A stretch of DNA of 64,000 nucleotides from Chromatiaceae bacterium (lineage in GTDB: Bacteria > Pseudomonadota > Gammaproteobacteria > SZUA-140), in NCBI GenBank assembly GCA_003232725.1, contig QIJH01000218.1, positions 3,429-67,428 on the forward strand, given 5' to 3'. The first letter of the stretch is position 1, and every line of letters begins with the position of its first letter. Both the position numbers and the translations under genes were made by a program. The notes beneath the pieces were generated by a model. The model was not told the origin of the DNA and ran no database searches. It was given only the letters and a program-made list of their open reading frames with translations. Below are positions 3,855 to 42,477 of this stretch, one piece after another.

Positions 3855-4130
3855 CTATCCCACCGCATCGCCTTCACCAGGTTTCTGAAGTTCCTGTGAC
3901 TCCTCTTCAATACGCCGCACCCCAAAGATCACCTTCGGCGGTATTCCCATTTCGAGATCGACACCATTAACACGATAGTTTGAACCGCGCTGTTTTAGGA
4001 TATCGTTCACCTTCTCCTGCTTTTTCATCGCCGCCATAATCGTATCCGCAATCAGCTCATCGCTGCTGAACTCGGTCGTTTTATCCATCACCTTGACGGA
4101 AAGTTCTTTTGCCTTGTCGAAGAATGCCAT
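3855..4130 (-). CDS. hypothetical protein (91 aa)
   Basis: ORF with an AGGGG RBS 6-7 nt upstream of ATG. Begins MAFFDKAKELSVKVMDKTTEF.... I recognise no family. Confidence 0.4.
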   Translation of the reverse strand: MAFFDKAKELSVKVMDKTTEFSSDELIADTIMAAMKKQEKVNDILKQRGSNYRVNGVDLEMGIPPKVIFGVRRIEEESQELQKPGEGDAVG

Positions 4131-4555
4131 CGCCTACCCCTATTAGTGATTACCGTTACCACAGCCGCCCGGTGAGCCCGCTGCTGAGGCGAGGGTCTTG
4201 TTGGCATCCTCAAAAAAGTCCTGCCAGCCACTGGCCATCGTATTTCCGATAAATAGCATCCACCGGTAACGCTGCGAGCTGTGGCAACACAACTTGCACA
4301 GACTGGTCCGCTTGCAACAGGCCGCATTCGTTACACTCCAGTTATAGAGATGGGTGTCACCTGAATTACTAACGATAACGCCTCCTCATCAAGACAAAAC
4401 GCACAGCCCATTCTCATGAGTTAAATAAAAACACAGCAAAAACAAACAATTTAATGTATAATTTGTCGCCTTGCTGGAATCATCCCGCAAGTTCGTGCGC
4501 CCTCTTAGACTCATATTGAGGTGCACGACCCTAGAACACTACAGGTATTTTACAG

Positions 4556-6409
4556 ATGTCATCACCCTCTGATAGCTTTTCGCAGCTAGCACTTTCCGCC
4601 CCTATCCTTCGCGCACTGGATGATGTTGGCTACGAGTCACCATCACCCATTCAAGCAGAAGCGATCCCGCATCTACTTGAAGGACACGACATTATAGGAC
4701 AGGCGCAGACCGGTACCGGTAAGACCGCTGCATTTGCACTACCGCTACTGAACAACATCGATCTAACACAAAAAACCCCGCAACTACTGGTACTGGCCCC
4801 AACACGCGAACTCGCGATCCAGGTGGCCGAGGCATTTCAGAGCTATGCACGTCACCTAAAGGGGTTTCATGTGCTGCCAATCTACGGCGGCCAAAGCATG
4901 GACACCCAGCTACGCCAGCTAAAACGCGGGGTACATGTCGTCGTGGGTACTCCTGGTCGCGTGATGGACCACTTGCGTCGTAAAACGATGTCACTCGCTG
5001 GCCTGAAATCACTCGTACTGGATGAAGCCGATGAAATGCTGAAGATGGGCTTTATCGATGACGTTGAATGGATCTTGGAACAGACACCAGAGACGCGTCA
5101 AATCGCGCTATTCTCAGCAACGATGCCAGATGTGATCCGTAAGGTTGCGAATCGTTACCTGAAAAACCCAAAGACGGTCAAGATCAAATCTGAATCGACC
5201 ACTGTTGATACCATCAATCAAAAATACTGGCAGGTCAGCGGCCTGCATAAGCTCGATGCGCTGACCCGCATCCTGGAAGTCGAAGAGCTCGATGCCGCAA
5301 TCATCTTTGTGCGCACCAAAAATGCCACCGCTGAACTGGCGCAGAAACTCGAAGCACGCGGCTATTCCTGCGCGGCACTGAGTGGTGATATCACTCAGGT
5401 GCTGCGCGAACGCACCGTTAATCAACTGAAAAAAGGGGTGATCGATATCATCGTTGCGACCGACGTTGCGGCGCGTGGCCTCGATGTGCCTCGCATCAGC
5501 CACGTGATCAACTACGACATCCCGTATGACACAGAAGCCTATGTTCACCGTATCGGTCGTACTGGTCGCGCCGGCCGCAAAGGCACCGCAATTTTATTTG
5601 TCGCGCCACGCGAGACCCGTATGCTGCGTGCGATTGAGCGCGCTACCAATAAAAAGATCGAGCGCATGCAACTGCCTTCGATTGAAGCAGTTAGCAACAA
5701 GCGTGTTACCGAATTTAAGCAGCAGATCCTCGATACCATCAAGTCTGAAGACCTAACATTTTTTAACGAAGTGTTGATGCAGATCGAAACAGAGCAGAAC
5801 ATCAGTCCAAATGATGTTGCCGCCGCACTCACCTATCTATTGCAGAAAGAACGGCCATTGATGCCTAAGGCGCAGGCGATGCCAAAAGACCGTAAAGCGC
5901 GTGACCGTACCGCGGACAACCGAGACCGCCCTCGCGAAAAACGTCCAGCACCTGGTTCACTCGGCAAGGCACGCCGTTTGAAAAAACATCCTGAAGTTGA
6001 AATGGCACGTTACCGTATTGAAGTTGGCAAGCATCATGAAGCTTCGCCAGGCGACATCGTTGGCGCCATTGCAAATGAAGCAGAGATCGACAGCCAGTAC
6101 ATTGGCGATATCAAACTCTATGATGACTTCAGCACTGTCGATCTACCCGCTGACATGCCAGCCGATGTCTTCCAGCTACTGAAAAAAGCCCGCGTACGCC
6201 AACAGGCACTAGCAATCTCAATCACTAAAGATGGCGCATTTGGCAATAAGGGCGGCGCAAGAAGTGGCACTGATAAAAAGCGTGAATTTTCCGACAAAAA
6301 AGGCGGTGATCGTCAAAAGAAATCGGGCAAAGAAAAATTCGTGAATAAAAAGGCCGCCAGTCAGGCTAAAAAACCAAAGAGCAAAGAACAAATCTCGCTC
6401 TCTAAATAA
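4556..6409 (+). CDS. deaD: ATP-dependent DEAD-box RNA helicase DeaD/CsdA
   Basis: Q-motif, motif I AQTGTGKT, DEAD (LVLDEADEM), SAT, HRIGRTGRAG. C-terminal DbpA-like RNA-binding domain and basic K/R/G-rich tail. 617 aa. Confidence 0.93.
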   Translation: MSSPSDSFSQLALSAPILRALDDVGYESPSPIQAEAIPHLLEGHDIIGQAQTGTGKTAAFALPLLNNIDLTQKTPQLLVLAPTRELAIQVAEAFQSYARHLKGFHVLPIYGGQSMDTQLRQLKRGVHVVVGTPGRVMDHLRRKTMSLAGLKSLVLDEADEMLKMGFIDDVEWILEQTPETRQIALFSATMPDVIRKVANRYLKNPKTVKIKSESTTVDTINQKYWQVSGLHKLDALTRILEVEELDAAIIFVRTKNATAELAQKLEARGYSCAALSGDITQVLRERTVNQLKKGVIDIIVATDVAARGLDVPRISHVINYDIPYDTEAYVHRIGRTGRAGRKGTAILFVAPRETRMLRAIERATNKKIERMQLPSIEAVSNKRVTEFKQQILDTIKSEDLTFFNEVLMQIETEQNISPNDVAAALTYLLQKERPLMPKAQAMPKDRKARDRTADNRDRPREKRPAPGSLGKARRLKKHPEVEMARYRIEVGKHHEASPGDIVGAIANEAEIDSQYIGDIKLYDDFSTVDLPADMPADVFQLLKKARVRQQALAISITKDGAFGNKGGARSGTDKKREFSDKKGGDRQKKSGKEKFVNKKAASQAKKPKSKEQISLSK

Positions 6410-6485
6410 AGTAGGCATTCACGCCTGGAATAAAGTCGTTGTTCCGGTATCCTAAAAAACCGGGACGGCGATCACTTTAACCAAC

Positions 6486-7730
6486 CTACCCTCGCAATAT
6501 CTTTTCTATCGCGTCAACATCTGCCTGTGCTGCCTCCAGCACACGCAATGTCATCTTTGGGCCAAGCCTGCCAAGCGAAAATTTAGTAAATGAAGGAACC
6601 GCATCGATTGCCGGATATTCCGCCATCTTCGGTGTATCGATAAAACTATAGAGCTGTGCCAATACAACCACATCGCAATAGTCAGGCTTAGGACCACCAT
6701 CGCGATACCAATCATGTGAACCACGCACCACATCGATCACATCCAGATCAAAATCCCAACGCCTCAACACTTGCACGCCCACCTCACAACTCAACTCTTC
6801 AATCACCTGACTCAACATTGCGGCATCTTCAACAAGCTCTGGGTATTTTGCCGCATAGTTAATCACAGGCAGCGCGCCAATGTTATATACTAACCCAGCT
6901 AACATCGCGCGATCTTCATCAAGCCCTCGCCCATGGCGTGAAATTACCGCACACAATGCAGCCAAGTGAGTACTACGCTGCCACGCTTTACGCATAAACG
7001 CTTGAAGCAATGGCGATTCGCTTTCGAATAACTGTTGTAATGAACAACCAATCACGAGATCCCGTGTCACCTGCAATCCCATTCGAGAGACTGCCATCTG
7101 GCAAGTGGTAATCGCCGATTTACCACGATACATAGGACTATTTGCCACCTTCAACAGACGTCCTGCCAACGGCGGGTCAGCCATCACGATCCGTGCCACT
7201 TCAGAAACATCAGACCCTTTATCCTTGACCGCAACCTGCACTTGCAGTGCGATATCAGGCAGACTGGGGATTTTAAGTTTACTGGCTTTTGAATCACGTT
7301 CAATATCGGCCATCAAATGCTCAATCAACGCCGCCTTATCGAGCGAAATATTGCCATCTATCTTATCTGGCGGTGGTGCATCACCCAGCGCCTTTCTCAC
7401 CTCATCATCACTCAAACGAAAAACAACCACTCGACTGCTAGCGCGAATCGTCCATTGGCAAGGCTTAGTGAAACTCAGCGGCAATTTAGCCTTATCAGTG
7501 TTTGCGCTCACCACCTCATCATCACGACCAGGCGCCACCATAGAGACATCGCCTGACACCAGAAAATAAGTCCAGGGCTCATTCGAACCGTGATGCGCGA
7601 TGGTCTCACCTGCTAGCAGCGTCTCAAAATAACTATCCCGAGAGAGCTGCAGTAACGCCACTGCATCAAGTTTATCCAGCGGGGAAAAGATGCCCATTAT
7701 GGCTGGATTGACCAGCTTATCCGTCTTCAT
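6486..7730 (-). CDS. cyclic-nucleotide-binding domain + HDOD domain signalling protein
   Basis: N-terminal cNMP-binding-like beta-barrel (ETIAHHGSNEPWTYFLVSGDVSMV). C-terminal HDOD-like helical domain (LPDIALQVQVAVKDKGSDVSEVARIVMADPPLAGRLLKVANSPMY...). Confidence 0.75.
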   Translation of the reverse strand: MKTDKLVNPAIMGIFSPLDKLDAVALLQLSRDSYFETLLAGETIAHHGSNEPWTYFLVSGDVSMVAPGRDDEVVSANTDKAKLPLSFTKPCQWTIRASSRVVVFRLSDDEVRKALGDAPPPDKIDGNISLDKAALIEHLMADIERDSKASKLKIPSLPDIALQVQVAVKDKGSDVSEVARIVMADPPLAGRLLKVANSPMYRGKSAITTCQMAVSRMGLQVTRDLVIGCSLQQLFESESPLLQAFMRKAWQRSTHLAALCAVISRHGRGLDEDRAMLAGLVYNIGALPVINYAAKYPELVEDAAMLSQVIEELSCEVGVQVLRRWDFDLDVIDVVRGSHDWYRDGGPKPDYCDVVVLAQLYSFIDTPKMAEYPAIDAVPSFTKFSLGRLGPKMTLRVLEAAQADVDAIEKILRG

Positions 7731-32216: not shown

Positions 32217-33173
32217 TTGCAGTCAAGACGAAAAATGCGTGACCAAAATGAAATGGAAATTGATGATTCCGTCTATAAAACACTCCTGGAATCGACAAAT
32301 GCAATTCCATGGAAGATCGACTGGCAGAGCAAAAAGTTTACTTATATCGGCCCACAAATTGAATCCTTACTCGGGTGGTCAACATCAAGCTGGCACAGCG
32401 TTAACGACTGGGTTGAACGCATGCATCCTGACAACAGAGAATCTGTGGTTAATTTTTGCATTGCTCAATCACAGGCAGGCAACGACCATGAAGTGGATTA
32501 CCGCGCCCGAACAAAGGATGGCGGCTACATCTGGATTCGAGATGTCGTTCATGTCATTCGTAAAAATAACGAAGTTGAATCAATCATCGGCTTCATGTTT
32601 GATATTAGCGAACGAAAGAAAATTGAAGAGAAACTCATTCACCTACAAAAAGAACTCGAAGAACTCTCTTATAAAGACGCCCTCACCAACATCGCAAACC
32701 GCCGCATGTTCGATTCCATTCTCAAACGAGAATGGGCCAGCGCACAACGAAACCAGCAACCGATCGCACTCATCCTGCTAGATATCGACTTCTTTAAAGA
32801 GTACAACGATCACTACGGGCACATCATGGGTGACGACTGCCTGAAACAGGTCGCCAGGATATTAAGTAACGTCGCAACCAGGCCGCGAGACTTTGTGGCG
32901 CGCTTTGGCGGCGGGGAATTTGTGCTCGTTCTCTCTGATACGGATGAGGCATCAGCAATCAAAATCGCTGAAGAATGCCGCCGCGAAATCACTCAACATG
33001 CCATTCCTCACGCACAGTCAACTATCGGCCAAATACTCACCATTAGTGCAGGTGCGGGTGCCATCACACCATTAAAAAACGCTTGTCAAAAATATTTCAT
33101 CAGGCAAATCGACACCCTGCTCTATAAAGCGAAACTTCGCGGCAGGAATTGCGTTATCCACAAAGCATCATGA
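32217..33173 (+). CDS. PAS-domain protein with degenerate GGDEF domain (RFGGGEF)
   Basis: PAS fold (LLESTNAIPWKIDWQSKKFTYIGPQIESLLGW...DGGYIWIRDVV) then GGDEF domain (LTNIANRRMFDSIL...LILLDIDFFKEYNDHYGHIMGDDCLKQVA...ARFGGGEFVLVL). The signature is GGGEF rather than GG[DE]EF. Confidence 0.8.
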   Translation: MQSRRKMRDQNEMEIDDSVYKTLLESTNAIPWKIDWQSKKFTYIGPQIESLLGWSTSSWHSVNDWVERMHPDNRESVVNFCIAQSQAGNDHEVDYRARTKDGGYIWIRDVVHVIRKNNEVESIIGFMFDISERKKIEEKLIHLQKELEELSYKDALTNIANRRMFDSILKREWASAQRNQQPIALILLDIDFFKEYNDHYGHIMGDDCLKQVARILSNVATRPRDFVARFGGGEFVLVLSDTDEASAIKIAEECRREITQHAIPHAQSTIGQILTISAGAGAITPLKNACQKYFIRQIDTLLYKAKLRGRNCVIHKAS

Positions 33174-33496
33174 CAACAGAAAACCCTGACGCCACATATA
33201 TTTAGAAAACGGCTAACGACCTTACATATTAATACAGCCAAAACCAAACTAAAAATACGAATCCCATCAGCACGCCAGGCTGAAAGTGGCTTAAATGCCA
33301 TCATCAATAGCAGGCTTGATTCCAACCAAAGCAACCCACTGTTAAACCCAGCCTCACGCGACAAATGTAGCGCTTCAACTCCGACCTAATAAATTGGAAA
33401 TATCAATTAGTTTTAATAAATTAATTCATTAGAGCAATTAATTAAGACGATCTATTATATGAACCAGCATCACACCAACAAACCAAGGAGATCACA

Positions 33497-34510
33497 ATGA
33501 AATACCCAATTGCTGGCATCGTTTTACTGGCATCTACGCCAGCACTCGCGTTAGACGCCATCCCCGACAGCTTTCCAACACCAATGGACAACCCAATCAG
33601 CAACGCCAAAGTAGAACTCGGCAAGCAGCTCTTTTTTGATCCGCGCCTTTCGATTGATGGCACCGTATCCTGCAACTCATGCCACAACGTGATGGCGAGC
33701 GGCACCGATAGCCGCCCTACTTCTGTTGGTGTTAACGGCCAACGCGGCGGACGTAATGCACCGACCGTGTGGAATGCTGCATTCCTTAGCACCCAGTTCT
33801 GGGATGGCCGCGCCGCGACACTGGAAGAGCAGGCAAAAGGACCACCTTTAAACCCAATCGAGATGGGCATGCCAAATGCACAGGCGGTGGTTGATCGGCT
33901 CGAAAGCATTCCCGGTTACAAGGCACAATTTAATGCCATCTTCGGCGCGGTCTCTTACGACAACATGGCAAAAGCAATTGCCAGCTATGAGCGCACACTG
34001 ATTACCATTAACAGCCCGTTTGATCGTCACATGAAAGGTGATAAAACAGCAATGTCTGACAAAGCGATCAAAGGCATGAAGCGTTTCAATACCATTGGCT
34101 GCTCTGGCTGTCACAACGGCGTTAACTTTGCGGGGCCTGCACTTGCCACCGGTACTGGTTTCTTCCAGAAATTTCCACTGTTTAACAACCCGCTTATCGC
34201 TAAATACAACTTGGCAAAAGACAAAGGGCGCTATGAAGTAACCCAGGACAACGCCGACATCAACACCTGGCGTGTGCCATCACTACGTAACATCGCCACC
34301 ACCGCACCTTACTTTCACAACGGCGCAGTTAAAACCCTTGAGGAAGCGGTACATGTAATGGCAACTAGCCAGCTTGATAAAAAATTAAGTGATGCTGAAA
34401 TCAGCGAAATCGTTGCTTTCCTGGAATCCCTCACGGGTGAGTTTCCAGCCCAGACTATGCCTAGACTTCCTGGCATTACGGGTAGCAGCCTCGTAGGTTC
34501 AATCAAGTAA
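33497..34510 (+). CDS. ccp: di-haem cytochrome c peroxidase (CcpA/MauG family)
   Basis: Signal peptide; two CxxCH motifs (CNSCH, CSGCH); ...FFDPRLS...GRNAPTVWNAAF...FWDGRA...TAPYFHNGAV conserved CCP residues. Confidence 0.9.
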   Translation: MKYPIAGIVLLASTPALALDAIPDSFPTPMDNPISNAKVELGKQLFFDPRLSIDGTVSCNSCHNVMASGTDSRPTSVGVNGQRGGRNAPTVWNAAFLSTQFWDGRAATLEEQAKGPPLNPIEMGMPNAQAVVDRLESIPGYKAQFNAIFGAVSYDNMAKAIASYERTLITINSPFDRHMKGDKTAMSDKAIKGMKRFNTIGCSGCHNGVNFAGPALATGTGFFQKFPLFNNPLIAKYNLAKDKGRYEVTQDNADINTWRVPSLRNIATTAPYFHNGAVKTLEEAVHVMATSQLDKKLSDAEISEIVAFLESLTGEFPAQTMPRLPGITGSSLVGSIK

Positions 34511-34536
34511 CCAGGTTCAACCAGGTAATACGGATC

Positions 34537-34562
34537 AGCCGACCTTCATGGTCGGCTTTTTC
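34537..34562 (+). terminator. Rho-independent terminator after ccp
   Basis: agccgacc-ttcat-ggtcggct hairpin followed by TTTTTC. Confidence 0.7.
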
Positions 34563-35056
34563 ATTCACGAAATTTCATTTAAATATGACATACTGGCAGT
34601 ACTTTATCACGAACCGCCGCCGCCCATCATAGCCTGCACTACCTGTTTCTTAAGCGGTATTTGCATCGCAGAATTGGCTCGTATCTTGAACGCCTTAATC
34701 AGATATATACGCAGACACACAATACTAGCCACAACCAAGTATCGCACATTTCTAGCGCCCCCAGCATGATTCACCATCATTGATTCTCTCACAAATAGAG
34801 TCAAAAAAATCCGACACGGCCTTACTCAAATAGCAGCGATTCTGCAACAAACCACCGCCCAGCTTCATATAAATAACGATATAAAAATTAATGGTTCTAT
34901 TCACATGGCCGCCGTAATACCACACCAAAACACCCGAAAAAACAACAATATATATAAATCTAATAGACCTTAAAGATAAAGAAGACAATTAACGATAACG
35001 AAAGCAATAGATCACAACAGCACTGACCACAATATAAATTTAAACAGCCAAACAGC

Positions 35057-35797
35057 GTGAATAAAAACCAGACAACACAGCAATCAGCCACGGATGAAAT
35101 CAATGATTTTATCGAACCTTGCTTTCTCAATAGCAATCGTTGGATAAACACACCAGTCAATAACAACATCGCAAAAATAGCACATTACCTGTCACATAAA
35201 ATTTCCAAAATACCACTGGATTTGACAAGCCATGCGCAACGGATTTCTCTTTACCGCCACCAAGATGATGCTGAAAGTACATATGCAGCACTATTAGATC
35301 TTTTCCTTGTACTTGGCAACAAAGGCCTGCCATTACGCAAGCGCCTACTACGGCAAGCAGCATCTGTCATCAGTGCAGAAAACTATGGTTTTTTATCAAG
35401 CACGCTGCCAACGGCATTGGTCATCACATGCAATACACCACTACCACACCTTTCCGCACTAAGTCTTGGTAGAACCAGAGAAAAAGAGATCATACGGAAA
35501 ACCGATGACGAGCAGTCAAAAAAAAAGGAAGCACCACTATTGATCGTGCGCGACCTACTTAATTCAGGACAAATATCACAGGCACAGTCAATTCTGGAAC
35601 TCGCACTGCTAGCCGCACCGGATAACAATGATCTTAGCAACGAACTACTGCAGATCTATCATCATACTCACGATAGAAGCGGCTGCATTCAAATGCTTAA
35701 AAAATTGTCATCAGCTGCATTAGCAGGCCGAGAGAAATGGGCAGAACTGATTATCACACTCGACCAGGACAGCACGGAGCGCTCACTCAGTGCATAA
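35057..35797 (+). CDS. hypothetical protein, helical/TPR-like C-terminus (first gene of candidate GTPase operon)
   Basis: 246 aa ORF with GTG start and no clear SD. C-terminal ...AQSILELALLAAPDNNDLSNELLQIYHHT... resembles a TPR/FimV-C-like helical hairpin. No family assigned. Confidence 0.4.
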   Translation: MNKNQTTQQSATDEINDFIEPCFLNSNRWINTPVNNNIAKIAHYLSHKISKIPLDLTSHAQRISLYRHQDDAESTYAALLDLFLVLGNKGLPLRKRLLRQAASVISAENYGFLSSTLPTALVITCNTPLPHLSALSLGRTREKEIIRKTDDEQSKKKEAPLLIVRDLLNSGQISQAQSILELALLAAPDNNDLSNELLQIYHHTHDRSGCIQMLKKLSSAALAGREKWAELIITLDQDSTERSLSA

Positions 35798-36680
35798 ACA
35801 GAAAACAACCAACCCTATTAGAGTGACCACACTCGGTCTCGATGAGCGCTCACAAGAGGTGCTGAGAATGGCTTTTTCAAGCGTCGCAAAGGGCGAGTGC
35901 GTTTTATCCGATACTGCCTCAGCAGATGTTGGTCTCTGTAATATGGATAGCCACAACGCAAATACATTATGGAGTAAAAATAAAACACACTATCCCGAGC
36001 GCCCTATGGTTGTGATTTCAGTCAAAAATCCACAACTTGAAAATTGCATGTATGTAGCAAAACCGATTAACATCACCATGCTTGTCGATGCAATCAAGGA
36101 TGCCTTTAGTAGCAGCGCCATGCAGCATTCAGTAGCTCATGCAGTCAATGGAATGCATGCCAGTACACAGGAGCTTCATCCGCTACCCCAGCAACCAGAG
36201 AAACACATTCAAGAGACATCCATGGGTTCTCCTCTAACACCTGAGGAACAATGGAATGATGAAGGCCACTCGAGTATCAACTACTACTCTCCAGCAGATT
36301 ACCTGCAAGAAGAGCTACAAAACTCTGCCACACAGGCAAGTGAGAGAAATCTATCCGCACAATACTCAGTCAAATTGAACGACACCTGGCTACACATCAC
36401 TATAGATCCAATTCATAATAAAGTGGTCTCTGAAATCAGCGATCAAATACTTGAGTCTCTGTGTACAACACCACGCTACTGTATTGAAACCAAATCAAAA
36501 TTTCTTAGCAAAAACAGATCCCACTTTGATGTCTACCGAGGAGACAAACCCTATCATGAATGCACCATCGCTCAATTCATTTGGAAGGTAGCGCTCTGGA
36601 CATCTGCTGGAAGACTATCAAAAGAGATGAGCCCATCAACACTGGCCGAATTTAACACGCCTGACACGCTCAAAAAATGA
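35790..36680 (+). CDS. receiver (REC)-like domain protein with unknown C-terminal domain
   Basis: N-terminal ~110 aa have CheY-like topology: IRVTTLGLDERSQEVLRMAF...ADVGLCNMDSHNA (Asp at the phospho-acceptor position)...PMVVISVKNP...YVAKPINITMLVDAIKDAF (KP motif). The acidic pocket is partly degenerate. Overlaps the previous gene by 8 nt. Confidence 0.45.
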   Translation: MHKQKTTNPIRVTTLGLDERSQEVLRMAFSSVAKGECVLSDTASADVGLCNMDSHNANTLWSKNKTHYPERPMVVISVKNPQLENCMYVAKPINITMLVDAIKDAFSSSAMQHSVAHAVNGMHASTQELHPLPQQPEKHIQETSMGSPLTPEEQWNDEGHSSINYYSPADYLQEELQNSATQASERNLSAQYSVKLNDTWLHITIDPIHNKVVSEISDQILESLCTTPRYCIETKSKFLSKNRSHFDVYRGDKPYHECTIAQFIWKVALWTSAGRLSKEMSPSTLAEFNTPDTLKK

Positions 36681-36942
36681 TATCAGGATAGCAGCGCTGC
36701 TCTCCGAACAGCCAGCTGCACCAGCCCTTATTTCCAAGGTACTTGGGATACCAATATCTCAAGTCTTTTCTTTTTACGCGGCAGCACATGCACTCAATTT
36801 AGCCATGCCAGTCGTGAATGTGACAAAAAAACCAGCGTTTAATATTCAACAAAAAAGCAAACATCATTCATTATTTAGCAAAATACTCGAAAAATTTGCT
36901 GGTTAACACTAAACCACCTACCCATAAAGACACCCTTCGATC

Positions 36943-37491
36943 ATGCCTGGAAACAATCATAAAATAATATTCACTGGCCCTGTGGGCGCAGGAAAGACAG
37001 CAGCAATTAGCGCCATTAGTGATATTGCCGTTTTAAAAACGGATGAAAATGCACAGGACATGACCAAGAAACGCAAGCAGACAACAACCGTAGCGCTAGA
37101 TTATGGGCTATTAAAACTAGGGGAAGGGGAAGGGGAACGCATTCACCTCTATGGCACACCCGGCCAGGAACGTTTCGACTTCATGTGGGACATATTAACC
37201 AATGGTGGCCTTGGCCTAATCCTACTACTTGACAACTCGCGCTCAACCCCTTTTAAAGACATGAGTTTTTTTCTTAACGCATTTCGTGATTTTATTTGCG
37301 ATAACAAAATGGTCATTGGGGTTACGCACATGGAATACAACGAAACATCAAAAATAGAGTCGTATCATCAACAGTTACATAAACATGGCATCAAAGCACC
37401 CATACTAGAAATTGATGCGCGAGAAAAAAACGATGTCGAAACGCTAGTCAAAACACTTCTTTACTCACTTGACCCATGGCTGGGGCAGTAA
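36943..37491 (+). CDS. small Ras-like GTPase, MglA-like
   Basis: 182 aa. P-loop KIIFTGPVGAGKTAAIS; switch I Thr (TTTVALDYG); switch II HLYGTPGQERF, like MglA's TVPGQ variant of DxxGQ. Size and organisation like MglA/CvnD-type GTPases. No clear canonical NKxD. Confidence 0.7.
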   Translation: MPGNNHKIIFTGPVGAGKTAAISAISDIAVLKTDENAQDMTKKRKQTTTVALDYGLLKLGEGEGERIHLYGTPGQERFDFMWDILTNGGLGLILLLDNSRSTPFKDMSFFLNAFRDFICDNKMVIGVTHMEYNETSKIESYHQQLHKHGIKAPILEIDAREKNDVETLVKTLLYSLDPWLGQ

Positions 37492-38177
37492 TGAGTCAAT
37501 ACGAACTGATCGATACAAGGTTTGTCTTACCATCACCCGCAGGCACATATTACGCCATATCAAACCATCAAGAAGAGCGCTCCAGAGGGCTGCTACTTGC
37601 TTTAATGACACAAGCAAACAGTCAAAGAATATCCACAGAGACGCTTTCGATTTGGCTAGACGATGACAACATTGAAACGTCATTGGCACTGCTTCACAAG
37701 ATTCAACAATTAGGCTGGCTTAGACCAGATGATGAACAATCATCGGCCCCGACCGGGGCACTTGAAGAAATAATACCACCGCTACTGGCAACATTATGCA
37801 ACACAGAAAAAACACTACTTGCCGATCACCAGGGCTTTACACTCGCCGCTCACGGATTTACTCACGAAGCAGCCGAAGAGCTATCGGCTCTCAGTGCAGA
37901 CCTCATCGCTCTGAGATTACGGCACGGAAGTTTGCTCACTAAAAACCTTAAACTTAATACGCAAGCCATCGGCCTTATTGATGCCGCAGGCAATAGCCAG
38001 CTAGGGTTCTGGCCACTGCATATTGGCAAGCACTGCTTTACATTGGTAATGAGTGGCATACCGCAATTTAATCAAACCAGTTTTACCAATTTAATTTGGC
38101 TACTAACGACTCGTTATGGATCAAATGACAATGCTGCCAATTTGTCAATTCACGAAATATTTTACACAGATAAATAG
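37491..38177 (+). CDS. hypothetical protein, possible tandem roadblock/longin-like partner (translationally coupled to GTPase)
   Basis: ATG overlaps the GTPase stop (TAATG). 228 aa. Second half (LLATLCNTEKTLLADHQGFTLAAHGF...AIGLIDAAGNSQLGFWPLHIGKHCFTLVMSG) has a roadblock-like alternation. Confidence 0.45.
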   Translation: MSQYELIDTRFVLPSPAGTYYAISNHQEERSRGLLLALMTQANSQRISTETLSIWLDDDNIETSLALLHKIQQLGWLRPDDEQSSAPTGALEEIIPPLLATLCNTEKTLLADHQGFTLAAHGFTHEAAEELSALSADLIALRLRHGSLLTKNLKLNTQAIGLIDAAGNSQLGFWPLHIGKHCFTLVMSGIPQFNQTSFTNLIWLLTTRYGSNDNAANLSIHEIFYTDK

Positions 38178-38239
38178 ACTGAGCGACAACTTATTCAATA
38201 TCATCTACCACAAAAATTTTGAAACAAGGAGTCAATATA

Positions 38240-38602
38240 ATGCGAGCTGACATTTTAAATTCTATTCTATCTGAGTTGAACGGCACTTCAGCTGAAATAG
38301 AAGCATCAGCCATCTTATCGACAGATGGCCTCATGATGGCATCAATGCTGCCTGCTGGAATGGATGAAGATCGAGTGGGTGCAATGGCTGCGGCCATGCT
38401 CTCGCTCGGCGATAGAACATCTGAAGAACTCGCACGCGGTGGACTTGAACAAGTACTGATAAAAGGAGAAAAAGGCTACGTTTTGATGACGCATGCGGGT
38501 GATGAATCAGTACTATCAGTACTTGCCAAACCAAGCGCGCGCCTTGGGCTAATATTTTTAGATGTAAAACGTGCTGCAGAATCAATTGAGAAGCTGGTTT
38601 AA
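38240..38602 (+). CDS. Roadblock/LC7 domain protein (MglB-like)
   Basis: MRADILNSILSELNGTSAEIEASAILSTDGLMMASMLPAGMDEDRVGAMAAAMLSLGDRTSEELARGGLEQVLIKGEKGYVLMTHAGDESVLSVLAKPSARLGLIFLDVKRAAE is a textbook Roadblock/LC7 signature. AAGGAG RBS 8 nt upstream. Confidence 0.78.
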   Translation: MRADILNSILSELNGTSAEIEASAILSTDGLMMASMLPAGMDEDRVGAMAAAMLSLGDRTSEELARGGLEQVLIKGEKGYVLMTHAGDESVLSVLAKPSARLGLIFLDVKRAAESIEKLV

Positions 38603-38626
38603 ACCAATCACGACAGGAAAACTCAC

Positions 38627-39097
38627 ATGAAAGACATGATGCCTGACAATATTTCCGGCGAGTACCAAGAACATCTATTCAGCTACCATGATGGTACTCA
38701 GCGAAAAGCCCTTTTCACCAACATCGAAACACAACTACCAGAAGGCCGCCTGATTGTTTCTCGCACAAATACCGATGGCATCATTATTGATGTAAACCAG
38801 CCATTTATTGAAATGTCCGCTTATCATAAAGATGAGTTAATCGGCCAACCTCATTATATTCTTCGCCATCCAGATATGCCTGCCGCCGCATTTAGCGATC
38901 TCTGGAAAATGGTTCAACAGCGAAATAAATGGCATGGATACGTCAAAAATCTTCGCAAAGACGGTGGCTTTTATTGGGTATATGCGACCGTTATCGCAAA
39001 CATTCGGAAGGGTGACATCACTGGCTTTACATCTGTTCGCCGCCGTGCCTCGCGCGCTAAAATTAATGAAGCCGAAATTCTTTATCAAACTTTATAA
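38627..39097 (+). CDS. stand-alone Aer-type (FAD-binding) PAS domain protein
   Basis: RLIVSRTNTDGIIIDVNQPFIEMSAYHKDELIGQPHYILRHPDMPAAAFSDLWKMVQQRNKWHGYVKNLRKDGGFYWVYATVIANIRKGDITGFTSVRRRAS closely parallels the Aer N-terminal PAS (GQPHN.VRHPDMP.AAF.D.W...G.PW.G.VKNR.K.G..YWV.A.V.P). No transmembrane or output domain. Confidence 0.8.
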   Translation: MKDMMPDNISGEYQEHLFSYHDGTQRKALFTNIETQLPEGRLIVSRTNTDGIIIDVNQPFIEMSAYHKDELIGQPHYILRHPDMPAAAFSDLWKMVQQRNKWHGYVKNLRKDGGFYWVYATVIANIRKGDITGFTSVRRRASRAKINEAEILYQTL

Positions 39098-39111
39098 CAG
39101 GATCATCAACC

Positions 39112-39858
39112 ATGACCCACAACTTCACCGTCAGTCCAGACTTTAATCCAGGCCATATATCTGGTTGGTACATCTTCAATACATGGCTTCAACGCACCAT
39201 CAATGAAGAGCTCCACCTGGAACTCTACAATAGCGCTAGCGAACAACGAAAAGCGATCGCTGATGACCGGGTAGATTTAATTTATGCCAACCCTTATGAC
39301 GCGACAGCACTGGTAAGAGACAAGGGGTTTTTCCCTGTTGCACGTGCTGACAACAAAACAGACGAGGCCATCATCGCTGTCAATCATGAAAGCCCAATCC
39401 TCAATGTTGAACAACTCACAGATGGCACCAGAATTTCCAGCACCGATGACCCGGACGTACGCATGATGTGCATGATCATGCTTGAGCCTGCAGGGTTAAA
39501 TAAAAGTAACACCTCTACCACACAACGTGATGCTTACATTTTGATTGCCAAAGATCTTTTAAAAAACGACGCCGACGTTGGTTTCTTTCTCGAAGAGACA
39601 TACAACGAACTCTCAGACATGACAAAAAAACAATTAAGACCTATTGTGCACAGCCAAATTCATGTCATCCACCATCTACTGCTTGTCGGTCCTAAATTAG
39701 CACACAAAAAAGATGACATACAATCATCACTCCTTTCAATGGCTGATGACTCAAAAGGAGTCGGCGTATTAAAAAACCTGAACTTCGAACGCTGGGTAGC
39801 GGTTGAGCAGGAAGAAGCCGAATTCATGATTGACTTAATGGACACATTAGCCGAATAA
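39112..39858 (+). CDS. PhnD/SsuA-like (phosphonate-binding family) periplasmic-binding-fold protein lacking a signal peptide
   Basis: 248 aa. DLIYANPYDATALVRDKGFFPVARAD...AIIAV pattern of Phosphonate-bd/PBP type 2. N-terminus MTHNFTVSPDFNPGH... is not a signal peptide. Confidence 0.6.
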   Translation: MTHNFTVSPDFNPGHISGWYIFNTWLQRTINEELHLELYNSASEQRKAIADDRVDLIYANPYDATALVRDKGFFPVARADNKTDEAIIAVNHESPILNVEQLTDGTRISSTDDPDVRMMCMIMLEPAGLNKSNTSTTQRDAYILIAKDLLKNDADVGFFLEETYNELSDMTKKQLRPIVHSQIHVIHHLLLVGPKLAHKKDDIQSSLLSMADDSKGVGVLKNLNFERWVAVEQEEAEFMIDLMDTLAE

Positions 39859-39880
39859 CATTTCAGCAGACTGATGACAG

Positions 39881-41008
39881 CTATTGCTTAGATGCCTCTT
39901 TTTTAGAGTCGCGCAACCGCTGAAGTTTTTCAAGTATACGTTCCGCCCGACCAATATGCTCTAGCGCCTGCTCGTTGTCGGGTGCCAGTGCTAGCGCATT
40001 TTCCCAGGTACCTATTGCCTTCATATACTGTCCCTCTCCGTAATACTCGACACCCAGGGCAATACTCTCTTTCACCTGTTTATCCAGAAGAAAACTCAAC
40101 TGCTGTGCAAGCTCAATCTCACTCTCATTCAAATTACCTAACAACTTCAACCTGACAACATAATCTAATGCCCTAGTCAGCTCATTATTATTGACAGCCT
40201 TAAGCAAAGACACATTGAGAATTTTTTGCATCTTCCGTCTACTTTCAATCACAATTTGTTGCTGTCTGCGCTCATTTTCCACCTGGGACTGTAACTTTTC
40301 ATTCTCGATTTCTTGCTGTTGTTTCGCCAATAGCAGCTGACTCTCCACGACTGTTTGCTTAAGCTCGCCTATCATCGGCACTGGATTAAGCTGCCAGGCA
40401 AGGCTAAGCAACTCTTCCGCATGGAGGAAATCATCCTGTTCCAAGGCTGCTCGTCCATGTTCAGCAAGCAATTTAGCAACTTTCTTTGATTTATCTTTAT
40501 CTCTTTTCCAGCGGCCCTCTTTTAGCCAACTACCTGGGGTAATCAACGCCAACTCTTCCTGAACACTAATCGTATTACTCAACCACTCCGCTTGCATCAC
40601 TAACAAGTCCAATTCCAGTGCCGCAACCCGAATATTCTGTTTAAAATGCAGCGCCTGAAATGCTGAGTTAATCTTTTCACTATCTGGAATATTATTTAAT
40701 GCGGTTTGGTAGTATCGCTTGGCACGATACCACTCTCCTGCCTTCTCAAGCGCCCTGCCCTCCTCCAGTGTCTGCTGCTCATATATAACTGCCTGCTTAT
40801 CAATACCAGCGATTAACGCATTCACACTTGAATAGTCAGCGTGCGACTCAGGCACATGAGAAAGCACCACTTGCGCTTGTGCATACCGATCCCCCTCGAC
40901 AAGAGAGTCCACCTTTTCTAATACATTAGACGAACGCGCATCCATATACGCACAACCCTGTACAAATATCACCAACAAAATGAGAAAGGCTAATTTCACA
41001 TTTTTCAT
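39881..41008 (-). CDS. TPR-repeat lipoprotein
   Basis: Signal peptide with lipobox (LILLVIFVQGC). Multiple TPR-like repeats (AQ..LS...Y..AL, GEWYRAKRYYQTALNN, GQYMKAIGTWENALALAPDN). 4-nt overlap with the upstream cyclase gene. Confidence 0.65.
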   Translation of the reverse strand: MKNVKLAFLILLVIFVQGCAYMDARSSNVLEKVDSLVEGDRYAQAQVVLSHVPESHADYSSVNALIAGIDKQAVIYEQQTLEEGRALEKAGEWYRAKRYYQTALNNIPDSEKINSAFQALHFKQNIRVAALELDLLVMQAEWLSNTISVQEELALITPGSWLKEGRWKRDKDKSKKVAKLLAEHGRAALEQDDFLHAEELLSLAWQLNPVPMIGELKQTVVESQLLLAKQQQEIENEKLQSQVENERRQQQIVIESRRKMQKILNVSLLKAVNNNELTRALDYVVRLKLLGNLNESEIELAQQLSFLLDKQVKESIALGVEYYGEGQYMKAIGTWENALALAPDNEQALEHIGRAERILEKLQRLRDSKKEASKQ

Positions 41009-42477
41009 GTCGATACGGATACGTCGCCAGTATTCACAACCGTCGATATTGCATCATCGATCATCGCCTGCTGTTTTTCATCAACACCGCTCACATGGTA
41101 AGTCACCAGCGCTTCTTTTTTTCCTTTTAGTGAAATTTTCTTAAAGCGAGTACTAACGATACCCTGAGATTGCAGTGTAACATTCAGTTCATCACTAATT
41201 AGAATTTCGCCAGCATCCGCCGCAGAGGCAAGGCGTGATGCAGTATTAACCGCATCACCAACGACCGTATAGTCCATTCGCTCGGCAGCGCCCATATTAC
41301 CAGCCAGCATCATGCCACTATTAATACCAATTCTAAAACGAACTTGCGTCAAATTATCATTCGCCCTCTGGCGGTTAACTATTTTAACTAGCTTTTGAAT
41401 CGTAATCGCACATGCAGCCGCATGAAAGCTATGCTTGGCATCATCCTCCGGCACACCAAAGACAAGCATCGCACAATCGCCTATGTATTTATCAATATGC
41501 CCACCATAGCAATGTGCTGCCTGCGCAATAATACTAAAGTACTCATTCAGAAGACTATTCACCTGCTCCGGATGTAGCTCTTCCGAAAGCCGCGTAAAAC
41601 CAACGATATCTGCAAACAAAACACTCGCCTCAACATGATGCCCTCCCAACTTCACCTGGTTCAGGTTAGACAATACCGCCTTAGCTACTTTCGGTGAAAC
41701 GTAACGTGAAAATGTCTGCTCCACTTGCTCTTTACGTAACAGCCCTTCCGTCATTTCATTCATCGACTGCATCAGTGAACCCAACTCATCTTTGCGCTGA
41801 TCATTAAGGCGAACATGATAATCACCAGCCGAAATTGCACGGCCAGCATTAATCAATTGATGTATAGGGCGAGTTAAACGCTTACCCAATATAAAAGATG
41901 CTATAAAACCCAGAATCACTAACAACAATGTCGCGCCACCTACCGTGCGAATGGTCTCTTGCTGTGCCAACGTTCTTAAGCGTTGATCAAAAGTAATGAG
42001 CACATAACCTGTCGTCACATCCTTAAAAAACACCGGCTTGAAAAATGAAACCATATCAAGCGGCTCAGGAGCAACGCTATTTTCCTGCCATTCCAGTTTA
42101 ATTACACGCCCTAAGGCAGTGGCAATACGGTGGTCGTCCGGCACTGCACCCTTTTTCACCACCAGCTCTTTGTTCTCATTGTAAAGAGCTGCGCCAAGAA
42201 TCCCAGCTTCACCTGCAAGACTGTTCACCACAATCTCAAGATTAAGGTGATCATTGGCTAATAAGGGTTCACGGGAAAAGCCGGCCATCAACCTTAAAAC
42301 CGTATTTCCCGACTCACTCACCTGCTGCTCAAGAATATTACTTTGGTTGTGGACAATGAACAGCCCCAACAAACTCATCCCGCAACTAATCAATAAAGTA
42401 AAGACTAATGAGAGTTTATAGGCAATAGGGAAGTATGCCGGCAAAAATGCTGTCAGATTTTGGCGTAACTTTTTCAT
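41005..42477 (-). CDS. membrane sensor adenylate/guanylate cyclase (2TM periplasmic sensor - HAMP - class III cyclase)
   Basis: Two TM segments flanking a ~150 aa periplasmic region, HAMP (ILGKRLTRPIHQLINAGRAISAGDYHVRL), CHD cyclase domain (VLFADIVGFTRLSEELHPEQVNSLLNEYF...IGDCAMLVFGVP...RIGINSGMMLAGNMGAAERMDYTVVGDAVNTASRL). Confidence 0.85.
   Translation of the reverse strand: MKKLRQNLTAFLPAYFPIAYKLSLVFTLLISCGMSLLGLFIVHNQSNILEQQVSESGNTVLRLMAGFSREPLLANDHLNLEIVVNSLAGEAGILGAALYNENKELVVKKGAVPDDHRIATALGRVIKLEWQENSVAPEPLDMVSFFKPVFFKDVTTGYVLITFDQRLRTLAQQETIRTVGGATLLLVILGFIASFILGKRLTRPIHQLINAGRAISAGDYHVRLNDQRKDELGSLMQSMNEMTEGLLRKEQVEQTFSRYVSPKVAKAVLSNLNQVKLGGHHVEASVLFADIVGFTRLSEELHPEQVNSLLNEYFSIIAQAAHCYGGHIDKYIGDCAMLVFGVPEDDAKHSFHAAACAITIQKLVKIVNRQRANDNLTQVRFRIGINSGMMLAGNMGAAERMDYTVVGDAVNTASRLASAADAGEILISDELNVTLQSQGIVSTRFKKISLKGKKEALVTYHVSGVDEKQQAMIDDAISTVVNTGDVSVST

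Follow-up and report, generated by a model that had tools for sequence, protein, structure and literature searches.

A gene overlapping that of an MglA-family GTPase in a Chromatiaceae genome encodes a predicted winged-helix–Roadblock protein, very probably the long MglB-like paralogue of a Group 3 system

The Group 3 MglA systems were described as 'almost exclusively' beta- and gamma-proteobacterial (Wuichet and Søgaard-Andersen 2014, PMC4316618), and the gene order DUF>MglA>MglB>MglB is listed in Table S2 of that paper for Neisseria (NMB0476 locus), Leptothrix, Acidithiobacillus, Methylomicrobium alcaliphilum, Methylomonas methanica and Teredinibacter. According to the same source the MglB proteins of the two-MglB systems fall into two clades, apart from those of single-MglB systems; the latter systems keep the DUF gene and its winged helix-turn-helix (wHTH)-like region, and the DUF protein is proposed there as a transcriptional output. 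Here we surveyed and analyzed a gene for a 228-residue protein (hereafter the target), which lies between a GTPase gene and a short Roadblock gene on contig QIJH01000218.1 of a Chromatiaceae bacterium (assembly GCA_003232725.1). The stretch analyzed as a whole, called the window, covers 64,000 nucleotides (nt) of this contig. An earlier reading made from the letters alone (the sequence-only reading) had taken the target for a possible tandem-Roadblock partner of the GTPase and for a member of an unrecognised regulator class.

Some related proteins have already been met in other work. A 2024 study of Snodgrassella named the pair mglB-1 and mglB-2, and by its account both were reportedly beneficial for gut colonisation in earlier transposon sequencing (PMC11112851). 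The Neisseria meningitidis protein NMB0478 was found in the inner-membrane fraction; in a South-western overlay it bound DNA, with no sequence specificity, and its null mutant had wild-type piliation and competence (PMC2885667). MglB itself binds one MglA as an asymmetric dimer, with GTPase-activating protein (GAP) and guanine nucleotide exchange factor (GEF) functions (PMC11016934), and MglC of Myxococcus is a paralogue of MglB (PMC7949163). In the Group 2 sister systems, the conservons, the Roadblock protein MfpD is the GAP and MfpC, a DUF742 protein of helix-turn-helix (HTH) type, is the GEF.

The surroundings of the target were surveyed in 80 species-level loci, the TPR, PAS and PhnD-like genes being counted only where the flank was sufficient. 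By the criteria of the 2014 survey (PMC4316618), the motifs of the window GTPase are those used to set apart Groups 2-5 of the MglA family, and Groups 2 and 3 in particular. The GTPase has GTPGQ, a Thr in place of the Arg finger (G2 context KQTTTV), a G4 motif other than [NT]KxD, and DAR, and the upstream DUF gene and the beta-/gamma-proteobacterial host likewise agree with Group 3. Over the 77 loci with a GTPase, GTPGQ and DAR were each present in 76, [NT]KxD in only 7, and G4 took the form T[QHK][MT][DE]. In Methylobacter and Neisseria the target homologue directly follows the GTPase gene and the short Roadblock gene comes after it, hence the target corresponds to the first of the two published 'MglB' genes. 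In the Neisseria locus, the primers published for N. meningitidis NMB0478 match the target orthologue at its start and in its interior, which identifies NMB0478 as that orthologue; NMB0477 is annotated as a GTP-binding protein. Very probably the target is the longer of the two MglB-like paralogues of a Group 3 system. Its family is under-studied and not a new class, because the loci were catalogued in 2014 as Group 3 MglA with two coupled MglB homologues, which amounts to an earlier listing of a second MglB-like GTPase partner (PMC4316618), and the suggestion of an unrecognised class is accordingly dropped. In the searchable literature no description was found of the winged helix in the N-terminal domain, the constant TPR partner, the TPR::target fusions, the PAS/PhnD-like pair or the family-wide stop/start coupling; the winged-helix domain, the fusions and the family-wide GTPase–target coupling may be new results.

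The target is clearly a real and widely conserved coding gene. Its relatives form 270 protein clusters at an expectation value (E) of 1e-3 or less, with E=7e-50 to 7e-147 among the 120 matches listed, and a relative is encoded in at least 499 species-level genomes. The names among the matches listed are 'hypothetical protein', except for one UniRef entry called 'Roadblock/LC7 domain-containing protein'. A search of NCBIfam with the target gave no match and a PDB sequence search with the single protein gave nothing meaningful.

The GTPase gene (36943-37491) stops with the TAA at 37489-37491 and the ATG of the target occupies 37491-37493, which confirms the one-base TAATG overlap seen in the sequence-only reading. 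A second in-frame ATG is present 15 nt upstream, at 37476, and 37491 is favoured as the true start because all 49 aligned homologues begin at the MS.Y.L position. In all 74 measurable loci the target ATG lies -23 to +6 nt from the GTPase stop, and in 72 of them the distance is -8 to +6 nt; therefore the tight coupling is a conserved property of the GTPase–target pair across the family. The target is separated from the short Roadblock gene by 19-287 nt (median 81), and in the window the latter has its own AAGGAG Shine-Dalgarno sequence at 38226-38231. The proposed translational coupling to the GTPase is supported, and the 'stoichiometric co-expression' proposed with it was overstated, since the overlap supports coupling and no defined ratio. 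Scanning of 34500-40100 for promoters and terminators revealed nothing above chance except a terminator-like hairpin behind the upstream peroxidase gene.

AlphaFold2 predictions were made for the target monomer, with a 49-sequence alignment, and for the isolated N-terminal domain (N-domain). The model of the target has two domains and is confident (predicted local distance difference test 86.9, predicted template modelling score 0.83). The C-terminal half shows the alpha-beta-beta-alpha-beta-beta-beta order by which the Roadblock fold is recognised, with or without a C-terminal helix, and the structural matches agree. The N-terminal half is predicted to fold as a strand, four helices and a wing; its structural matches are winged-helix domains and Roadblock is absent among them. 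The fold and the matches rule out a second Roadblock domain in this half. The sequence-only reading was right about the fold of the C-terminal half and about an N-terminal half unrelated to it, and its tandem Roadblock has to be replaced by a single Roadblock domain behind a winged helix.

At the level of sequence the Roadblock domain is remote from its relatives. The target scored 15.7 bits against Pfam Robl_LC7, which is below the gathering cut-off of 23 (E=0.013), and weak matches to this model were obtained in 29 of 49 target homologues, the best with 4.9e-5; the Pfam Roadblock model is reported to overlook some MglB homologues (PMC4316618). The PDB profile match of the target was CvnB5, a weak one (E=0.12), and hhalign of the target against Streptomyces CvnB was insignificant (E=0.66). 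The relationship of the target to the short Roadblock family or to CvnB is visible only via the weak Pfam matches, the PDB profile match and the structure, and the target is like the eukaryotic and Asgard Roadblock/longin regulators at the fold level only (8-16% identity). The most conserved segments of the domain, by mean column identity, are beta1 K.LLAD (0.92), the first half of alpha2 HEAAEELSALSADL (0.91) and beta4 SQLGFWPL (0.87). G115 is invariant, the residue before it is Q/H/E/D/L, and an Asp three residues before it, D112, is present in 48 of 49 homologues. An Asp-Gly pair was reported for the MglB proteins coupled to Groups 2-5 (PMC4316618), and in the short Roadblock protein the pair D29-G30 is invariant in the alignment. 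The short Roadblock protein may be the true GAP, because it keeps this pair and the target is without the Asp.

The N-domain is acidic across the family, with a mean net charge of -3.5 and an isoelectric point of 5.4; the helix in the recognition position (61-73) has a net charge of -1.3 and the wing -0.8. Its conservation is maximal at the PTPAGAYYA segment (mean column identity 0.80). A Pfam scan of 35 N-domains gave a match to HTH_Crp_2 in one of them and to MarR_2 in one, and DUF742 (PF05331) matched none of the 35 at E<=10. When the N-domain was compared by hhalign with a DUF742 profile of 27 sequences, E was 0.18 over 12 columns and the probability 0.3%, comparison with a single DUF742-type sequence gave no link, and an exhaustive HMMER search with the N-domain profile matched mainly proteins of target-family length. 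Homology of the N-domain to DUF742/CvnC is unsupported by these searches. As for ArsR/MarR-like DNA binding, the fold itself is present, the recognition helix and the wing are not basic, and matches to DNA-binding HTH families are limited to the HTH_Crp_2 and MarR_2 matches named above. A classical DNA-binding winged helix is disfavoured by the acidic charge, and the overlay assay of NMB0478 keeps the idea alive. The N-domain winged helix resembles peptide-binding recognition elements of ribosomally synthesised and post-translationally modified peptides and the winged helices of Npr2/Npr3. The coordinates of all features are provided in Table 1.

Table 1. Features of the target gene and of the surrounding module in the window
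Feature	Position	Strand	Evidence
Target gene, 228 aa: long winged-helix + Roadblock MglB-like paralogue (very probable)	37491..38177	+	Open reading frame (ORF), homologues, AlphaFold2 model
TAATG junction, GTPase stop and target start sharing one base	37489..37493	+	Sequence; spacers in 74 homologous loci
N-terminal winged-helix domain, residues about 11-80, acidic, family-specific	37521..37730	+	
C-terminal Roadblock/LC7 domain, residues about 91-210, alpha-beta-beta-alpha-beta-beta-beta-alpha	37761..38120	+	
GTPase, small Ras-like, MglA family, Group 3 type; G1 GPVGAGKT, G2 TTT, G3 GTPGQ, G4 THME, G5 DAR	36943..37491	+	Pfam ATP_bind_1 and Ras; PDB matches Rab/Sec4, MglA; motifs in 77 loci; published group definition
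Short canonical Roadblock/MglB-like protein, 120 aa from ATG 38240, invariant Asp-Gly	38240..38602	+	Pfam Robl_LC7 E=2.3e-17; alignment; 75-97% identity across loci
TPR-containing protein, first module gene; fused to target in some lineages	35057..35797	+	Weak Pfam TPR_19; 67/67 evaluable loci; fusions P0258, P0292
'DUF' gene of Group 3 systems, REC-like N part, wHTH-like C part; frameshifted near 36628	35790..36906	+	Translations, alignment; description in PMC4316618
Stand-alone PAS protein, accessory	38627..39097	+	Pfam PAS_3/PAS_9; 37/61 evaluable loci
PhnD-like substrate-binding-fold protein, no obvious signal peptide, accessory	39112..39858	+	Pfam Phosphonate-bd E=1.8e-33; N-terminus read; 38/61 evaluable loci

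The target is part of a conserved module. The two commonest gene orders were TPR>DUF>GTPase>target>Robl>PAS>PhnD (32 of 80 loci) and TPR>DUF>GTPase>target>Robl (26 of 80). The GTPase and the short Roadblock gene were each detected in 77 of the 80 loci, so the absence from homologous loci that would have counted against a partner role is clearly not what was observed, and the downstream neighbour is a Roadblock gene, as had been read from the letters. The TPR gene was found in every locus where it could be evaluated (67), the parts of the DUF gene in 70-74 of 80, and the PAS and PhnD-like genes in 37 and 38 of 61 evaluable loci. In Methylomagnum, Methylobacter, Sedimenticola, a Methylophilaceae metagenome-assembled genome (MAG) and the window, the target has the same neighbours and the flanks differ, and the hosts of the module include Thiotrichaceae, Methylococcales, Chromatiales, Methylophilaceae and Neisseria.

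The genes of the module evolve at different rates. Median identities to the proteins of the window were as follows: short Roadblock protein 78% (77 loci), GTPase 61%, target 47%, TPR protein 32% and DUF parts 25-39%. In the loci L014-L017 the short Roadblock protein is 96.7-97.5% identical, compared with 68-89% for the target and 79-92% for the GTPase, and where target identity is just 68-69% that of the short Roadblock protein is 97.5%. Judged by these identities, constraint within the module is strongest on the short Roadblock protein.

Natural fusions of the TPR protein and the target were found in two proteins, P0258 (474 aa, locus L012) and P0292 (470 aa, locus L013). Their N-terminal parts align to the window TPR protein over about 190 residues with 27-31% identity (E 5e-16 and 3e-14). 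The remainder of P0258 aligns to the target with 39% identity (E=3e-49), and the P0292 locus (4083-5495) matches the target with 34% identity (E=4e-30). A third candidate fusion, P0268 (359 aa), has only a TPR match and the target N-domain. By the Rosetta-stone argument, the fusions are an indication that the TPR protein and the target may work together physically.

A role as regulator or partner of the GTPase, already suggested in the sequence-only reading, is the best reading of the target. As the likeliest mechanism we propose, with some hesitation, that it may be a specialised protomer of a heteromeric Roadblock regulator of the GTPase. The Roadblock domain of the target would bind the GTPase via its most conserved surface, formed by the beta1-beta2 hairpin and the first half of helix alpha2, and this face would be the one used by MglB on MglA, as judged from published structures. 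The target would pair with the short, canonical, DG-containing Roadblock protein as a heteromeric platform, which could control whether the GTPase is in its GTP or GDP state, through GAP activity, nucleotide exchange or both, and the acidic winged helix would dock the TPR protein or an extended peptide, thereby tying the platform to the signalling module, and would not bind DNA. Precedents are MglB, which acts as an asymmetric dimer with GAP and GEF functions, its paralogue MglC, the Roadblock GAP and HTH-type GEF of the Group 2 systems, and the eukaryotic Roadblock platforms, which are heterodimers, for example LAMTOR2/3. Some of the results weigh against this proposal. The hhalign comparison of the target with the short Roadblock family was insignificant (E=0.17), the target has D112-x-x-G115 in place of the Asp-Gly pair, its translational coupling is to the GTPase and not to the short Roadblock protein, the two Roadblock proteins differ greatly in rate (median identity 78% vs 47%), and the Neisseria orthologue NMB0478 bound DNA in the South-western overlay (PMC2885667).

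The other explanations assign the work differently. Under a conservon-like division of labour, the short Roadblock protein would be the GAP and the target the GEF, with its winged helix in the role of CvnC/MfpC (DUF742) and its Roadblock domain serving only for docking to the GTPase or the GAP. This is rather unlikely, as the 35 N-domains, hhalign and exhaustive HMMER searches revealed no sequence relationship to DUF742, and the single-MglB Group 3 systems, described as keeping the DUF gene with a wHTH-like region (PMC4316618), are without the target, because of which another component could be the GEF. It is also possible, and quite unlikely, that the target is a catalytically inert adaptor like MglC, which would localise or scaffold the module by attaching to the short Roadblock dimer, the TPR protein or both. 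Such an MglB paralogue exists in Myxococcus (PMC7949163), the target evolves far faster than the short Roadblock protein and is without the canonical Asp, and the TPR::target fusions point to a scaffolding link; however, the universal translational coupling is with the GTPase, and conservation peaks at beta1 and the first half of alpha2, on the face that would match the MglA-binding face of MglB. A DNA-binding output controlled by the GTPase, in which the winged helix binds DNA and the Roadblock domain links binding to the state of the GTPase, would fit the winged-helix fold and the DNA binding of NMB0478 from the inner-membrane fraction in a solid-phase overlay (PMC2885667). We hold it to be very improbable: the N-domain is acidic and its recognition-position helix net negative, the overlay was without sequence specificity and the null mutant was wild-type in piliation and competence (PMC2885667), and the adjoining DUF protein already has a wHTH-like region and is proposed as transcriptional output (PMC4316618).

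A broader version of the proposed heteromeric regulator is decidedly improbable as a whole. In it the module would be a bacterial counterpart of Ragulator/GATOR logic, where an obligate two-Roadblock heterodimer docks the GTPase and the winged helix of the long subunit recruits the TPR scaffold and supplies CvnC/MfpC-type exchange, so that one chain would be both GEF and GAP platform, under cytoplasmic PAS and PhnD-like sensors.

The remaining genes of the module and its flanks were also recorded. The start of the short Roadblock gene in the ORF list is the TTG at 38219, and the homologues together with the AAGGAG favour the ATG at 38240. The DUF gene of the window has its N part at 35790-36680 (a 296-aa ORF) and its C part at 36628-36906 in another frame (WPNLTRL...ISKVLGIPISQVFSFYAAAHALNL...). 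The two parts share one frame in 66 of 69 other loci, including the nearest relatives L014 and L015, and the frameshift is either an assembly error or a recent inactivation. In the alignment of the DUF proteins the conserved N- and C-terminal regions are joined through a variable linker. In Methylobacter (L005, 8223-8780) an inserted protoglobin gene separates the short Roadblock gene from the PAS gene, which suggests a cytoplasmic small-molecule or gas-sensing input to the module. In the Methylophilaceae MAG the trio Robl-PAS-PhnD is placed upstream of TPR-DUF-GTPase-target.

On the upstream side the window has a PAS-GGDEF diguanylate cyclase gene (32217-33173) and a di-haem cytochrome c peroxidase gene (33497-34510), the latter followed by the terminator-like hairpin at 34537-34557. 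On the downstream side, on the minus strand, there are genes for a TPR protein with a lipoprotein-like N-terminus (39881-41008) and for a HAMP-containing class III nucleotidyl cyclase (41005-42477). These signalling-gene flanks (32217-34510 and 39881-42477) are unconserved in other genomes.

Some variant loci were observed during the survey. In L013, the locus of the second fusion, the short Roadblock gene is divergently transcribed and the fusion is preceded by a 589-aa protein that carries a proline/glutamate-rich repeat; within 13.5 kb no GTPase was detected. The module copy of Neisseria gonorrhoeae NZ_CP119140.1 (L009, labelled plasmid, 2.17 Mb) at 6001-7551 looks decayed, with a GTPase match broken into two frames (6001-6150 and 6141-6518) and a target orthologue, the NMB0478 equivalent with ATG at 6530, that is frameshifted within the winged-helix domain at about 6690-6705. 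The short Roadblock gene is seemingly intact there, and PAS and PhnD-like genes do not follow it. On the megaplasmid of Ralstonia solanacearum (L011, 5608-9696) a related GTPase with 40% identity is present in another layout, with a small protein upstream, a 436-aa protein overlapping the GTPase stop, and, about 1.9 kb downstream, a Roadblock homologue that shares 40% identity with the short Roadblock protein; no target homologue was found at this locus, which may be another variant of the Group 3 systems.

Hundreds of beta- and gamma-proteobacterial species carry Group 3 MglA systems, among them methanotrophs, sulfur-oxidising symbionts, Neisseria and the bee symbiont Snodgrassella. Reading the long 'MglB' as a winged-helix–Roadblock protein gives concrete hypotheses on the wiring of a prokaryotic Ras-like switch. 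The module also provides a simple setting in which to ask if bacteria already possess heteromeric Roadblock platforms, which are a hallmark of Rag and Rab regulation in eukaryotes.

Compared with known systems, the module stands closest to the two-MglB Group 3 systems of Neisseria (NMB0476-0479) and Snodgrassella, with the same order DUF>GTPase>long Roadblock>short Roadblock, the same GTPase motifs (GTPGQ, Thr in G2, non-NKxD G4, DAR) and the same beta-/gamma-proteobacterial taxa; the target is orthologous to their first 'MglB' and there is no essential difference. MglB of Thermus thermophilus and Myxococcus xanthus, the GAP of Group 1 MglA with GEF-like activity, is a single-domain homodimer whose GTPase carries an intrinsic Arg finger, whereas the target adds a winged helix, has D-x-x-G instead of the usual Asp/Gly arrangement, adjoins a second Roadblock paralogue and is coupled to a GTPase with Thr at that place. 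The actinobacterial conservon (CvnA-D; MfpB-E) includes a histidine kinase, CvnA, which this module is without, and its HTH-type and Roadblock parts are separate proteins, whereas in the target they are fused in one chain; unlike the conservon, this module has TPR, REC-like/wHTH, PAS and PhnD-like genes, and no DUF742 sequence similarity was detected in it. With Ragulator LAMTOR2/3, the C-terminal domains of RagA/C, GATOR1 Nprl2/Nprl3 and Mon1-Ccz1 the likeness is at the fold level only: the GTPase clade and the cellular context differ, and heterodimerisation of the target is a prediction.

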